NCBI GenBank assembly: GCA_051875715.1
Contig: JBJEHD010000077.1
Span: forward strand, 8,827-72,826
Direction: 5' to 3'
Origin: Bacteroidaceae bacterium
GTDB lineage: Bacteria; Bacteroidota; Bacteroidia; Bacteroidales; Bacteroidaceae
DNA: 64,000 nucleotides
The stretch's first letter is position 1, and each line of letters starts with the position of its first letter. The translations under genes and the position numbers were made by a program. A model generated the notes under the pieces. That model saw nothing but the letters and a program-made list of their open reading frames with translations. It was not told the origin of the DNA and searched no databases. Of this stretch, positions 39,159-48,791 are shown piece after piece.

Positions 39159-40169
39159 CTACTTCTGCAGATAGAGCACCACGGGGAAGTGGTCGCTGTA
39201 GCCGTTTTGGAAGCGGTTGCCCGAGAACGTGCGGAGCGGATATCCTTTGTATTTGCCTTCCTTTTGGATGAGGAAGTCGCGGTTGAATATTTCCATGCTC
39301 TCGTATCGCAACTGGCCGGATTGTCGGCTCAGCAAGCCTTGCGAGATGATGACTTGGTCGAACAGGTTCCATTGGTTCTGGTAGCAGATGGTGCCGATGC
39401 CTTTGGTCCAGAAGTTCCACGTCACGTTGTAGAGCCCGCTCTCTTCGGCCTGCTCCATTTTTTCGGAGGCACGCAGCACGTAGCGTGTGCTTTCGTCGTC
39501 GGGGTTGTCGTTGAAGTCGCCCAGGATGACAATCTTGGCCGTTGGTTCGGCCGCGAACAGCGAGTCGACGATGTGTCGGGTGACGAGGGCTGCCTGGCAA
39601 CGCATATTGCCTCCGCGTCCGCCCCGGCGTGAGGGCCAGTGGTTGATGATGAAGTGCATCCGCTCGCCTTTCAGCTGTCCGCTCACGAGCAACTGGTCGC
39701 GCGTGCGGAAGGCGGTGTCTTTCTTGGACACCATGGGATAGGCCTTATAAGACTCCACGCTGAATAAGTCGGGGTTGTAGAGCAGGGCCACATCGATGCC
39801 GCGGCGGTCGGGCGAATCGTGATGGACGATGCCGAACCGATGGCTGGCCAGCCGTTTGTTGGCCACTAAGTCTTCCAGGACGCGTCGGTTCTCCACCTCG
39901 CTCACACCCAGCACGGCCATGCCCTCGGGACATTGTTCTTTGCCCAGGCGGGTGATGACCGAAGCCAGCTTGTTCAGCTTCTGGTTATACTTCTTCGGGG
40001 TCCACTGGTAGTTGCCCTTCGGGGTGAAGTCGGCATCGTTGATGCGAGGGTCGTCTTCCGTGTCGAACAGGTTCTCCAGGTTGTAGAACCCGACGGCGTA
40101 TTTTTCCTGGGCGGGCAGGAAAACAGCCACGCCCAGGAAAAGGGTGATGATGAATGCAAATCGTCTCAT
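39159..40169 (-). CDS. Secreted endonuclease/exonuclease/phosphatase (EEP) family nuclease
   Basis: 336 aa. Signal peptide (FLGVAVFLPAQ) and EEP catalytic motifs GFYNLENLFD, ILGDFND and YSDHFPV. Confidence 0.85.
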   Translation of the reverse strand: MRRFAFIITLFLGVAVFLPAQEKYAVGFYNLENLFDTEDDPRINDADFTPKGNYQWTPKKYNQKLNKLASVITRLGKEQCPEGMAVLGVSEVENRRVLEDLVANKRLASHRFGIVHHDSPDRRGIDVALLYNPDLFSVESYKAYPMVSKKDTAFRTRDQLLVSGQLKGERMHFIINHWPSRRGGRGGNMRCQAALVTRHIVDSLFAAEPTAKIVILGDFNDNPDDESTRYVLRASEKMEQAEESGLYNVTWNFWTKGIGTICYQNQWNLFDQVIISQGLLSRQSGQLRYESMEIFNRDFLIQKEGKYKGYPLRTFSGNRFQNGYSDHFPVVLYLQK

Positions 40170-41653
40170 TCTGCAGTCAGTTTAACGTTGTCGATGCGAT
40201 AGCCGGCGGTGTTCCTGGCCGTCTCGGACTTGAAAGTAATGGAGGTGAAGCCCGGGGTCAGGCCGGTCAACGTCACCGTCTGGTACGAGTTGGTGGTGGC
40301 GATGGCCTTGGCCGGAACGGTCAGTTCCGTGTCGCCGGCATAGACGCGGATGGCGTTTTGGTCGCCCGAGTCGTTGGCTGTGATGGAGTAGGAGAGGGTC
40401 AGCGTCGTGTGACCCGTCGTGCTGAATCCGGCAATCTGCAACTGGCTGTCCTTATTGGCAGCCATCCACACGTGCGGGTCGAGTGTGGAGGTCTGACGGA
40501 CGGAGGCGTTGCTGTAGGTACCGGTCATGCCCGGATCGGAGAAGGTGAGGTTCTTGTTGTCCCAGCCGGTGTAGGCATTCACGCCCGGCCAGTAGCCGTC
40601 GGATCCCTTGGCCACGCTCGAACCGAAGGTCTCGTAGAAGACGGTATTGCCGCTGCCCGAACCGCTACCCGAACCGCTGCCGCTGCCCGAACCGCTTCCT
40701 GAGCCCGAACCACTGTCCGAACCTGAGCCGCTACCTGAGCCGCTGCCTGAACCGGAACCGCTGTCCGAGCCAGAGCCGCTACCCGAACCGCTACCCGAAT
40801 CCGAACCGCTACCCGAATCCGAACCGCTACCCGATCCGTTGTTACCGGATTCGCCGGTTTGGGCGAAGTCTTGGATATCGGCCGTGCTGCGGATGCTCAA
40901 CTGGAAGTTGCCGTTGTAGCGTCCGAGGATGCCGTAGACGGTGCCTTTTCCTTTCGGCAGTTTGTCGGCTGCAAACGAGGCGTACGAACTGGTGCGGACG
41001 GTCAGTTTGTTGCCGTTGGCATCGACAAGGTTTTCCGAACCATAGGCATCGGAGGGCGCAAACGTGTTTTTACCTCCGTTCTCGAACGTCACGTTGTTCA
41101 GTTTCACCAGGGTGAAGACGTGGCTGGCGTTCAGTTTGGTGAAATCGTTCACGATGAGGGCGTTCAACTTTTCTTCTTCCGGCCATCCGTTGAGGAGCAC
41201 ATGCTCCTGGAAATCTTCCCACGGGGTACGGTAGAGGTAGGCGTCGGGATAACCCAGTTGCAGCTCGCCTCCGTAGGCCGACATACACATGCCGTTCAGT
41301 TGGACAAATACCTCTTGTCCCACTTCGTAGGTGCTGTAGGTGCTTCCCTGGTCCACACCGATGACGATACCGCCTGTCTCGTCCTGGATAATCATCTGCT
41401 TGTAGATGTTGCCGGACTCATCGTTGGCGGCCACACGTGCCCGCAGCACGTAGTCGTCGGTGATGGTGATGGCGGCGTCTTGTGCGGCCTTATATGCCTC
41501 TTTCAGTTCGGCGATGGAGATGTTTGCCTTGGCACCTGTGTAGGTGGGCATGGTCAAGGGGGGAGCATCAAATTCTCTTTCGCAGGATGTGAACGTGCTG
41601 CCCAGCAGGCAGGCTCCCAGCAATATGTGATGGAATGTTTTCATCGTTTTCAT
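40166..41653 (-). CDS. Lipoprotein: DUF5689-like (OB-like) N-terminal domain, Gly-Ser linker, ~155-aa C-terminal module shared with the 44202 gene
   Basis: 495 aa. Lipobox TFTSC followed by EREFD. The N-terminal pattern [10 protein letters not shown]...[23 protein letters not shown]...YGGELQLGY resembles DUF5689 and the N-terminus of ExeM/NucH-type nucleases (from memory). ATGA overlap with the EEP gene. Confidence 0.75.
40649..40836 (-). repeat. Imperfect tandem repeat encoding a ~60-residue (G/D)S linker
   Basis: Translated as [63 protein letters not shown]. The DNA shows repeated gccgct(a/g)cc(c/t)ga(a/g)cc units. Confidence 0.9.
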
Positions 41654-41672
41654 AGGATGTTGAAATTAGTGT

Positions 41673-47377: not shown

Positions 47378-47414
47378 GAGATGTCCATTTTCTGAGTGAA
47401 TGAAGGCTTGTGGC

Positions 47415-48791
47415 TTACTCCACGTTGATTCCCCATACGAGACAACGTGCGTCACCGCCCGAAGGCTTGGCGGAAGTGAAAGTGAGCGTGGTCTGGTCGG
47501 TCACGCCTTCCAGCGTGTAGGTGAAGTGCTGCGTGGCCAGGTCGACGGCGGCAATTTGATAGGGGTTGGCCGTGTTTGCTCCTGCACTGACCAGTCCGAC
47601 GGTTTGGCTGGCCTCTCCGCCGATGGTGCCGGCGTTATCGATGCTGACGGTGATTTGTCCGGTCTTTGCAGCCCAGCCGATGGCGTAGAACGAGAGTTTC
47701 GTCATGCCGGCTCCGATGGGGGCGCTGGTCCACGATGCACCGGCACTGCTGTTGCCCAGTTTGAGGACGGAGTTGGCTTCGCCGTCGCCTACCTGGATGG
47801 TCCCTCCGCCCGGATTTGCAGTTGTGCCGAGCGATTCAAAGCCGGTCACATTGCTTGTGTGAGGCGGCATTTCGGTCGGTGTCTCCGGGGTTCCCGGGTC
47901 TGGATTTTCCGTGTCTGCGTCTTGATGGACATCCTGGTTGGCATTGATGGTGACCCATCCGGCGATGGAGGACACCAGCGATGCCTCGACGGCGGGTCCG
48001 GCCACCCCTTTCAGCGTGATGTTGTAGACGTGGTTGGTGCCTGCCTCCAACGTGACGTTGGCCAGGTCCCAGGTGTAGGACTTGCCGTCATAGGCAAAGG
48101 TGATGCGTCCATCGAGTTTGCCCGGCAACACGATGGCCTGCAACGTGGCTCCGTTGGCCGTCATGGCCAGGGCCTGACTGGCGGACAGGTTGCTCATCGT
48201 ACCGGTCGAGAGGTCGAAATCGGCTTTCGTGGCGCGGGTGATGTGGCCTGTGATGCCGGTTGCATCGGCATTCTCGCTGGTCTTGACGGTCAGCGTCAGC
48301 ATGGACAACTGGTGCTTGAACTGCAGGGATACGGCACTGGTGTTGGCCTTGTCGTAGGCGGAAGCAGGGGCGGCGTAAAGCAGGTCGTGCTCGCCGGCGG
48401 CCGTAAGGTCTACCTTATATATATGGTTGCTGACGGTGGCATACGGATAGTAAGCGGCAAAGCGGACCTTGCTCCCGTCGGTGGGGTAGAACAGGTGGGT
48501 GGCGTCGGCCGGGGACATTGCCCCTCCCGTCTGCACGGTGTATTCCTTGTTGTCTGCTCCGCCTACGGGGGCGAAATCGTTTTCGCCGACCATGTAGATG
48601 CCGACATGTTCTCCGCCCGTCCAGGCATCGCCCGCGCTGTTCACACGGGTGCCTACTCCGGCCACTGAGCCGGTGAAGCGTACTGCTCCGGCGGGTGCTT
48701 CATCCCATACGTCGCTTTCGTTCGTACAGGCAGCCAATCCAAGAAGCATCAAGCAGATGCTCCCAAACATACTTTTTGTTTTCATGCGCAA
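47415..48791 (-). CDS. Fimbrillin-like lipoprotein with linker and a distinct C-terminal beta-rich module
   Basis: 458 aa. Lipobox GLAAC followed by TNESD. N-terminal pattern VRFTGSVAGVGTRVNSAGDAWTGGEHVGIYMV and linker DADTENPDPGTPETPTE. An alternative start at 48785 is possible. Confidence 0.7.
   Translation of the reverse strand: MRMKTKSMFGSICLMLLGLAACTNESDVWDEAPAGAVRFTGSVAGVGTRVNSAGDAWTGGEHVGIYMVGENDFAPVGGADNKEYTVQTGGAMSPADATHLFYPTDGSKVRFAAYYPYATVSNHIYKVDLTAAGEHDLLYAAPASAYDKANTSAVSLQFKHQLSMLTLTVKTSENADATGITGHITRATKADFDLSTGTMSNLSASQALAMTANGATLQAIVLPGKLDGRITFAYDGKSYTWDLANVTLEAGTNHVYNITLKGVAGPAVEASLVSSIAGWVTINANQDVHQDADTENPDPGTPETPTEMPPHTSNVTGFESLGTTANPGGGTIQVGDGEANSVLKLGNSSAGASWTSAPIGAGMTKLSFYAIGWAAKTGQITVSIDNAGTIGGEASQTVGLVSAGANTANPYQIAAVDLATQHFTYTLEGVTDQTTLTFTSAKPSGGDARCLVWGINVE

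Follow-up and report, generated by a model that had tools for sequence, protein, structure and literature searches.

The locus ddbABCDEF of Bacteroides thetaiotaomicron DFI.1.47 has been described as a DNA-utilization locus (Sharan et al., PNAS 2025; PMC12478041), and it is among the closest described counterparts of the six-gene block studied here, which lies in 64,000 nucleotides of DNA from Bacteroidaceae bacterium (assembly GCA_051875715.1, contig JBJEHD010000077.1, positions 8,827 to 72,826; this whole stretch is hereafter called the window). In ddb, DdbA and DdbF are lipoprotein nucleases, DdbB is a nuclease with a type I signal peptide (SPI) placed by the authors in the periplasm, DdbC is a TonB-dependent transporter (TBDT), DdbD carries a DUF5689 domain, resembles the HIN domain of p202 and is predicted to cap DdbC, and DdbE is a lipoprotein with a type II signal peptide (SPII) and of unknown function (PMC12478041). 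DdbA, DdbB and DdbF are active nucleases in vitro, and a strain deleted for ddb no longer depletes exogenous DNA and gives reduced levels of uracil and xanthine in mono-colonised mice (PMC12478041). The authors explicitly drew the analogy with polysaccharide utilization loci (PULs) and defined four subtypes, namely Bt1, Bt2, Pv1 and Pv2, by >50% identity and >75% coverage to a reference DdbC (WP_008762511.1, WP_055220680.1, WP_005843284.1 and WP_117829583.1, respectively), with approximately 25% identity between the Bt and Pv types (PMC12478041).

Other described systems share part of these components. In B. thetaiotaomicron VPI-5482, BT3563, from the BT3560-BT3563 operon, is an extracellular DNase on which biofilm formation in response to bile depends and which is found enriched in vesicles (Bechon et al., PNAS 2022; PMC8851478); the tested DNase corresponds to the last gene, and the label of the endonuclease/exonuclease/phosphatase (EEP) family is given in figure legends for genes of the region. 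In Riemerella anatipestifer, the TBDT RA0C_RS04915 and the adjacent RA0C_RS04920, which carries DUF5689 and DUF5017 domains, are essential for natural transformation (Huang et al. 2021; PMC8459023). Furthermore, the Prevotella intermedia nucleases NucA (EEP) and NucD (Endonuclease_NS) degrade neutrophil extracellular traps (NETs) (Doke et al. 2016/2017; PMC5516193).

The block of the window consists of six tightly packed, co-oriented open reading frames (ORFs) on the reverse strand (39159-48785), named G1 to G6: three fimbrillin-like lipoproteins (G1 to G3), the second fused to a NucA-type endonuclease, a protein regarded as a TBDT from its predicted fold (G4), a DUF5689 lipoprotein (G5) and an EEP nuclease (G6). 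A preliminary description of this DNA had proposed that the block serves for the capture, cleavage and TonB-driven uptake of nucleic acids, following the logic of a PUL with nucleases as enzymes and without SusD or glycosidases, and had considered that no experimentally described system displayed such an architecture. The gene content bears out the PUL-like logic, which was also recognized for ddb, and loci with the same components have been shown experimentally to act in the proposed manner (PMC12478041); conversely, the claim of novelty does not hold, as the architecture is described in three reports (PMC12478041, PMC8851478, PMC8459023). By analogy with these systems, our results place the window locus in a family known from 2021-2025 through the depletion of external DNA by gut Bacteroides and the uptake of DNA by Riemerella, and we consider, with a probability of about 0.75, that it is a ddb-type DNA-utilization operon, that is, a nucleic-acid counterpart of a PUL.

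Comparison with described loci and domain content

The features of ddb that are found in the window include the TBDT fold (G4), a DUF5689 gene next to the TBDT (G5), an SPII nuclease (G2) and an SPI nuclease (G6). In both loci the DUF5689 lipoprotein adjacent to the TBDT resembles DNA binders of the HIN and oligonucleotide/oligosaccharide-binding (OB) folds, SPII nuclease(s) are accompanied by one SPI nuclease and by an SPII lipoprotein of unknown function, the PUL-like logic goes without SusD or glycosidase, and the whole locus is mobile between genomic contexts. The window differs from ddbABCDEF in the absence of CarboxypepD_reg from G4, and in the presence of three fimbrillin-like lipoproteins, a 70-aa SG linker and a duplicated C-terminal domain shared by G3 and G5, here named module X.

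Similar partial resemblances were found with the other systems. The BT3560-BT3563 operon likewise combines a TBDT, a hypothetical protein and lipoprotein nucleases with EEP-family proteins and extracellular DNase activity (PMC8851478), whereas the surface nuclease of the window is an Endonuclease_NS fusion and its EEP protein has no lipobox. The Riemerella pair shares with the window the TBDT, the DUF5689 lipoprotein and an adjacent ddbB-like nuclease; however, its demonstrated role is in transformation and not in catabolism, its TBDT carries the CarboxypepD_reg domain that is absent from G4, its C-terminal module is DUF5017/choice-of-anchor J while module X gives no DUF5017 match, and no Mfa-NucA lipoproteins are described for it. 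The same two enzyme classes are found within the Bacteroidales in P. intermedia, but NucA and NucD are encoded at separate loci (PIN17_A1415 and PIN17_0064), with no fimbrillin-like fusion, TBDT or DUF5689 partner described, and on account of these unrelated locus tags and missing partners they were rejected as orthologous members of the locus (PMC5516193). With SusC/SusD PULs the window has in common the surface binders and enzymes, a TonB importer paired with a lipoprotein, an enzyme for trimming in the periplasm and export signals, and it differs from them in having nucleases as enzymes and no linked regulator within the window; Pfam detected no SusD, Plug, TonB_dep_Rec or glycoside hydrolase domain in the six genes. 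ExeM/NucH nucleases (NF033681) share the EEP catalytic domain, and OB-like (DUF6359) and LTD domains accompany DUF5689 in relatives of G5. An earlier suggestion held that G5 and G6 look like a split ExeM/NucH enzyme; however, G6 scored 28.7 bits against a cut-off of 300, with the EEP part alone aligning, and as a single-domain Exo_endo_phos_3 protein it is not a member of that family, which leaves the suggestion weak.

Apart from the TBDT, the families proposed for the block were recovered by Pfam, namely Mfa_like_1 in G1 (E 5.1e-41), G2 (E 1.1e-46) and G3 (E 7.7e-46), Endonuclease_NS in G2 (E 2.7e-39), DUF5689 in G5 (E 3.8e-68) and Exo_endo_phos_3, of the EEP family, in G6 (E 2.7e-127). The catalytic motifs that had been described could be read intact in the translations, namely DRGH in G2 and NLENLFD, GDFND and SDH in G6, and G2 also retains the downstream Asn and Glu of GLNQSIWASLE. 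These residues are conserved among orthologues, since xRGH is kept in 67/67 NucA-type proteins (DRGH in 51/67), and N-x-E-N, GDFN and SDH are kept in 73/73, 73/73 and 66/73 EEP proteins, respectively. Both enzymes had been regarded as secreted to the outside, a proposal that may stand for G2, with its lipobox and Endonuclease_NS domain; G6, which is DdbB-like, displays a type-I signal peptide with no Cys and is therefore probably periplasmic.

Signal-peptide classes were assigned by eye from the translations. In G1 (lipobox LGLAAC), G2, G3 and G5, the lipobox Cys is followed by acidic residues and then by low-complexity linkers rich in P/T/D or SG, as expected from the preliminary description, while the signal peptides of G4 and G6 have no lipobox Cys. 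The same description had ascribed a surface-export signature to the four lipoproteins; this agrees with the acidic residues of all of them, although the strict lipoprotein export motif C(x/xx)(D/E)(D/E) of PMC12478041 occurs solely in G3 (CNDDE).

Regarding the transporter, sequence searches with G4 retrieved no Pfam match (E<=10), no NCBIfam match and no PDB match, either by phmmer or with a 25-sequence profile, and consequently its assignment is based on the annotation of homologues and on the fold. A total of 3447 homologues were found, mostly of about 905 aa with the N-terminal CarboxypepD_reg domain, a few of them named TonB-dependent receptor by NCBI; most of the relatives listed also evade the Plug and TonB_dep_Rec models, and a few carry a precomputed PF00593 match. 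The AlphaFold2 model of G4, built with 25 homologues, reached a predicted local distance difference test (pLDDT) score of 75 and a predicted template-modelling (pTM) score of 0.75, with residues 1-86 disordered, and Foldseek aligned it to PqqU, PiuA, Fiu and FhuA with E-values of 4e-26 to 4e-24 and a probability of 1.00, over approximately 785-815 columns at 10-14% identity. Judged by this model, G4 is a genuine, very divergent TBDT, so that the earlier designation, left without a sequence family, is upheld by structure. Judging from the consensus of the family, a conserved TVILSNDVY segment that precedes the plug-like RGYD...INGV region may represent the TonB box. A minority of the relatives, of approximately 835-860 aa, resemble G4 in lacking CarboxypepD_reg and in having, downstream of the signal peptide, a stretch of some 60 residues that is acidic and disordered.

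G5 also matched NF052645, the model of the Riemerella lipoprotein M949_1556 (E 4.8e-34; 117.9 bits, with a cut-off of 475), for which just virulence and antigenicity phenotypes are reported in the literature; when G5 was used as query over its full length, the SG linker partly dominated the search, which gave just 54 matches. The AlphaFold2 model had an overall pLDDT of 83, with both domains above 90 and linker residues 268-334 disordered, and Foldseek returned two sets of structures with modest E-values (5e-5 to 4e-4). One comprises tandem-OB/HIN DNA binders (Teb1 AB, IFI16 HIN, p202 HIN1 and a complex with single-stranded DNA), and the other jelly rolls (CBM29, 22, 35, 6 and 4 among the carbohydrate-binding modules (CBMs), a hyaluronan-binding module, the ligand-binding domain of an ephrin receptor and the gingipain K3 adhesin); from aligned length and position, the former would belong to DUF5689 and the latter (approximately 130-180 columns) to module X. 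These matches are consistent with the designation of G5 as a DUF5689/OB-like lipoprotein, and by analogy with DdbD we propose that it acts as the substrate-binding lid of G4.

Operon layout and conservation across Bacteroidota

The genes are separated by 37, 83, 12 and 19 nt (G1/G2, G2/G3, G3/G4 and G4/G5, respectively), the start of G6 overlaps the stop of G5 through an ATGA sequence, and a terminator hairpin follows G6 (dG -29.3 kcal/mol; z -6.05; 0/200 shuffles equally stable; Table 1). With these short gaps, the overlap and the terminator, the block has the anatomy of a single operon, in agreement with the co-orientation and the translational coupling of G5 and G6 noted previously. The hairpin had been missed by a terminator scan because of its 10-nt loop, and a sigma-70 promoter scan is not applicable to Bacteroidota and was uninformative here.

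The co-conservation of the block was examined in one genome per GTDB species, giving 577 relatives, of which the best 80 (weakest identities listed, 51-54%) were mapped by tblastn with the domains of the window; gene-order counts cover the 58 loci with at least 3.6 kb on either side of the TBDT. A collinear cassette of Mfa-NucA lipoprotein, Mfa-lipoprotein, TBDT, DUF5689 lipoprotein and EEP genes was found in 52/58 loci, and in 3/58 further loci with extra Mfa genes (55/58 in total). The remaining 3/58, two Dysgonomonas loci and one Bacteroidales metagenome-assembled genome (MAG) (L020, L023 and L052), display a second arrangement (arrangement II), in which the EEP gene precedes the TBDT and a gene for a BACON-Endonuclease_NS lipoprotein is divergent. 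The DUF5689 gene follows the TBDT in 74/74 loci, and thus the conservation check proposed in the preliminary description gave a positive result for the five genes G2 to G6. Contigs with near and remote relatives of G4 also displayed these neighbours. The carriers include Phocaeicola, Bacteroides, Prevotella, Alloprevotella, Porphyromonas, Dysgonomonas, Proteiniphilum, a Rikenellaceae MAG, Sphingobacterium and Elizabethkingia, and the cassette order spans three orders of Bacteroidota. The same cassette was observed in gut Bacteroides through the B. finegoldii TBDT used as query, its 546-member cluster and the corresponding contigs; no named B. thetaiotaomicron entry appeared in this cluster or among the best 80 of the 577 relatives. 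BACON or CBM_4_9 domains occur in some of the orthologous lipoproteins. Even in L001, the closest relative, with a TBDT 82% identical to G4, the cassette is flanked by folD and ffh instead of the ssb gene and fucose cluster of the window, and these differing flanks indicate that the cassette moves as a unit.

Table 1. Features of the locus and its surroundings (window positions)
Feature	Position	Strand	Description
G1	47415-48785	-	Mfa_like_1 (fimbrillin-like) lipoprotein, P/T-rich linker, ~150-aa C-terminal module
G1 C-terminal module	47418-47888	-	weak relation to NF052644 family
G2	45755-47377	-	lipoprotein: Mfa_like_1, linker, Endonuclease_NS (NucA/Serratia type)
G2 nuclease domain	~45791-46399	-	Endonuclease_NS
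G3	44202-45671	-	lipoprotein: Mfa_like_1, linker, module X; putative binder, DdbE-like or like a surface glycan-binding protein (SGBP)
Module X copy 1	44205-44690	-	C-terminus of G3
G4	41673-44189	-	predicted divergent TBDT, DdbC-like, 838 aa
G5	40166-41653	-	lipoprotein: DUF5689, SG/SD linker, module X; DdbD-like
G5 DUF5689 domain	~40874-41527	-	Pfam
G5 SG/SD linker	~40649-40861	-	low-complexity, 70 aa
Module X copy 2	40169-40648	-	C-terminus of G5
G6	39159-40169	-	EEP nuclease (Exo_endo_phos_3), type-I signal peptide, DdbB-like
Intrinsic terminator	39084-39132	-	16-bp stem then UUGUUUUAU (U-tract), 3' of G6
AT-rich intergenic region	48786-49048		~265 nt between G1 and divergent ssb; presumed promoter region
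ssb	49020-49475	+	identified by Pfam
Putative fucose cluster	33853-38745	-	GntR-HTH/Peripla_BP_3 regulator, L-fucose isomerase, FGGY kinase
Peptidase_C10	29454-31556	+	streptopain/interpain-like cysteine protease, N-terminal Spi inhibitor-like prodomain
Low-G+C segment	62001-64000		G+C 39.5%
PAD_porph ORF	63014-63850	-	agmatine/peptidyl-arginine deiminase-like, 278 aa
DUF4405 ORF	61918-62379	-	membrane ORF

Around the operon, the linkage with the divergent ssb gene is probably coincidental, as it is missing in L001. Directly downstream of the terminator lies what looks like a fucose utilization cluster; the GntR/LacI-type gene that heads this fucI/FGGY-kinase cluster was considered as a regulator of the locus and rejected, because it is located beyond the terminator and is absent from the flanks of relatives. 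The segment at the end of the window has a G+C content well below that of the remaining window (approximately 57%), and may represent a horizontally acquired island. No matches were obtained in tRNA and Rfam scans of the window.

Several relatives displayed particular configurations. In Dysgonomonas macrotermitis (L023 12948-17354), a divergent BACON-Endonuclease_NS gene is followed by EEP, TBDT and a DUF5689 gene with three DUF6359 repeats; the next gene encodes a PUL-type hybrid two-component regulator (Reg_prop, Y_Y_Y, HisKA, HATPase, receiver and AraC helix-turn-helix domains) that could control that locus, and the same genome also holds a window-type arrangement (L016). Another D. macrotermitis locus (L003 4148-6307) has Phosphodiest (PF01663) and Ppx-GppA genes directly upstream of the cassette, a possible sign of a connection with phosphate metabolism in this organism. 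In Phocaeicola faecicola, a second, distant ddb-like unit (L013 1-3730) immediately precedes the main cassette; it is made up of a TBDT-like gene end (27% identity to G4), a 621-aa DUF5017 protein without DUF5689 match and an Exo_endo_phos_3 nuclease. This unit may be of the published Pv type, as the 27% value recalls the approximately 25% reported between Bt and Pv. In B. finegoldii JCM 13345 (L025 4164-7572), the gene for the Mfa-NucA lipoprotein and that for the second Mfa lipoprotein are each broken up into several ORFs, and a metagenome contig (L086) has split Mfa-NucA and DUF5689 genes; the TBDT is intact in both, and these splits could correspond to pseudogenisation or to assembly frameshifts.

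Module X and the C-terminal module of G1

The preliminary description had recognized one module common to G3 and G5, and the two copies are indeed 79% identical in amino acids over 159 aa (88% in nucleotides). Sequence searches with module X in Pfam, NCBIfam and PDB retrieved nothing apart from weak matches of 5/27 members to choice-of-anchor C; based on the predicted fold, it appears to be a jelly-roll domain without existing annotation. Residues Arg51, Trp61, Gly149 and Arg151 are invariant in 27 diverse copies. An exhaustive phmmer search placed the module in just 182 representative clusters; its usual position is C-terminal, and some proteins have 2-3 copies. Among ten proteins sampled, its partners were Mfa_like_1 or DUF5689, the latter with DUF6359, DUF5017, or BACON and LTD, and one sampled protein joins it to Endonuclease_1 and a tail of the type IX secretion system; this recurrence with nuclease or OB-like modules provides circumstantial support for a role involving nucleic acids.

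In 33 loci the upstream lipoprotein and the DUF5689 protein each carry module X, the identity between the two copies of a locus being usually 25-47%. The two copies of the window are more similar to each other (79%) than to their positional orthologues in L001 (70-71%), positional orthology being still visible, and at the DNA level long identical tracts are interspersed with divergent ones. These observations suggest partial gene conversion, by which the two window copies look partly homogenised; the copies of two Alloprevotella-type loci (L028 and L038) are likewise alike (74%). Module X comprises at least two sequence classes; many loci pair different classes (25-47%; e.g., L039 7297-7782 and 11414-11911), and the same class occupies both positions in the window, in L001 and in some Alloprevotella-type loci.

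Among the best 80 of the 577 relatives, a G1-type gene is limited to the closest ones (L001 and L002), which suggests that G1 is a lineage-specific addition. Its C-terminal module is approximately 36-37% identical to those of the L001 and L008 homologues, and the three proteins matched the same segment (profile positions ~54-128 of 251) of NF052644, the Riemerella AS87_RS02955 family of non-specific endonucleases, with E-values of 4.5e-5 (G1), 5.9e-6 (L001) and 4.1e-7 (L008) and scores far below the 260-bit cut-off. As one segment is matched by three divergent G1-type proteins, G1 may add a third module of nuclease-like type, possibly nuclease-like or DNA-binding in function; the Riemerella AS87_RS02955 endonuclease is a virulence factor (PMC12398890). 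The G1 C-terminus was also compared with module X and rejected as a further copy of it (hhalign probability 0.4%).

Proposed mechanism and alternative explanations

In the mechanism that we propose for a ddb-type operon, G1, G2, G3 and G5 would be displayed on the cell surface or on vesicles, each with a fimbrillin-like or OB-like domain near the lipid anchor, a flexible linker and a distal module. Extracellular DNA or RNA would be cut into fragments by G2, a Mg-dependent, sugar-non-specific endonuclease of the DRGH type, with a possible contribution of the G1 module, while G3 and G5 (and G1) would hold the polymer at the surface. G5, with its tandem-OB/HIN-like DUF5689 domain, would cap the G4 barrel as SusD caps SusC, G4 would import oligonucleotides by means of TonB energy, G6 would trim the fragments in the periplasm, and the resulting nucleotides or nucleosides would enter general salvage or catabolism. 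Our analysis establishes directly the gene content, domains, intact motifs, operon structure, co-conservation and predicted folds on which this proposal is built. The nuclease activities, the requirement for DNA depletion and the predicted DdbC-DdbD complex were demonstrated or modelled for homologous loci in the literature and are extended to the window by analogy, and from both sources we infer the localisation, the imported species and the physiological role.

Several points weigh against this proposal. The window locus is known solely from its sequence and predicted models, and its likeness to ddb lies in shared families (DUF5689, TBDT and EEP) and not in direct sequence comparison. Gene order also differs, being lipoprotein(s), NucA-lipoprotein, lipoprotein, TBDT, DUF5689 and EEP in the window, and TBDT, DUF5689 and then two lipoprotein genes in B. 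thetaiotaomicron, whose expected order (ddbA, ddbB, TBDT, DUF5689 and two lipoproteins, deduced from how the genes are named and from polar effects observed in BT3560-3563) resembles arrangement II instead; gene order was no membership criterion for the ddb authors. P. intermedia NucA, an EEP protein with a predicted signal-peptidase cleavage site that is credited with nuclease bands in activity gels, is predicted to be extracellular (PMC5516193), and by this precedent G6 may not be periplasmic. The isoelectric points of DUF5689, module X and the G1 module are low (4.5-5.3), and such acidity disfavours simple electrostatic binding of DNA, and with its CBM-like fold module X could bind a glycan. 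Finally, DNA is a poor sole source of carbon, nitrogen or phosphorus for B. thetaiotaomicron (PMC12478041), so nutrient scavenging may not be the selected role.

Three alternative explanations were considered. The locus might constitute an outer-membrane DNA-uptake machine for natural transformation, in which G4 and G5 import long DNA destined for ComEC/DprA, a route already put forward for RA0C_RS04915/RS04920 of Riemerella, and the nucleases process it. In Riemerella, transposon insertions in the TBDT or the DUF5689 gene abolish natural transformation (PMC8459023), tonB mutants also show lower transformation (PMC8383284), G5 matches the Riemerella M949_1556 model, Elizabethkingia, which is related to Riemerella, carries this cassette too, and ssb is the divergent neighbour. 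However, two or three nucleases with intact motifs in a single operon favour the destruction of DNA, the ssb linkage is missing in L001, and no comEC, dprA or comF was found among the genes examined in the 64-kb window; we therefore regard this function as unlikely. A role mainly in the remodelling of extracellular DNA (eDNA) or in defence, with surface or vesicle-borne nucleases trimming the eDNA of biofilm matrix or host NETs and import being secondary, seems more improbable still: it would fit the biofilm requirement and vesicle enrichment of BT3563 (PMC8851478), the degradation of NETs by EEP- and NS-type nucleases of P. intermedia (PMC5516193) and the weak similarity of the G1 module to a virulence-associated endonuclease, but it leaves unexplained the TBDT-DUF5689 linkage in 74/74 loci and the signal-peptide-I nuclease, and the loss of nucleobase production from DNA upon ddb deletion implies uptake.

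In the third explanation, the locus would serve for the utilization of a glycan or glycoconjugate, the CBM-like module X and the fimbrillin-like lipoproteins binding carbohydrate and the nucleases being accessory. The CBM and hyaluronan-binding matches of module X, the BACON or CBM_4_9 domains of some orthologous lipoproteins, the acidity of all binding modules and the hybrid regulator adjoining one arrangement-II relative would agree with it. Nevertheless, no glycoside hydrolase, lyase, esterase or SusD was found in the block, either here or in approximately 60 relatives, its enzymes are exclusively nucleases, whose catalytic residues are conserved, module X is repeatedly found together with Endonuclease I and OB-like DUF5689/DUF6359, and the Foldseek E-values for CBMs are modest (~1e-4), all of which renders glycan utilization very improbable. 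The ddb-type operon accordingly remains our preferred interpretation. As a more speculative extension, which we put forward tentatively and regard as rather doubtful, loci with the window order would form a distinct, not yet characterised ddb class, in which module X is the recognition element, present on a fimbrillin-stalked lipoprotein and on the DUF5689 lid and representing a new fold class of nucleic-acid binding, gene conversion keeps the ligand specificity of both copies equal in the lineage of the window, and G1 contributes a third nuclease type of the AS87_RS02955 kind.

The locus itself is no discovery; rather, an interpretation drawn from raw sequence found support in an independently described experimental system, and what is new here, namely the module X domain, the apparent gene conversion and the nuclease-like G1 module, constitutes modest leads. 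Module X and the G1 C-terminal module are good candidates for assays of DNA binding or nuclease activity, given their recurrent fusion to nucleases. Since G4 and most of its listed relatives evade the Plug and TonB_dep_Rec models, surveys of eDNA turnover in genomes and metagenomes can leave loci of this kind under-annotated. The five-gene order of the window is by far the commonest in the 58 loci compared, from the best 80 of 577 relatives, and the published genetics were carried out with an apparently different order, that of B. thetaiotaomicron.

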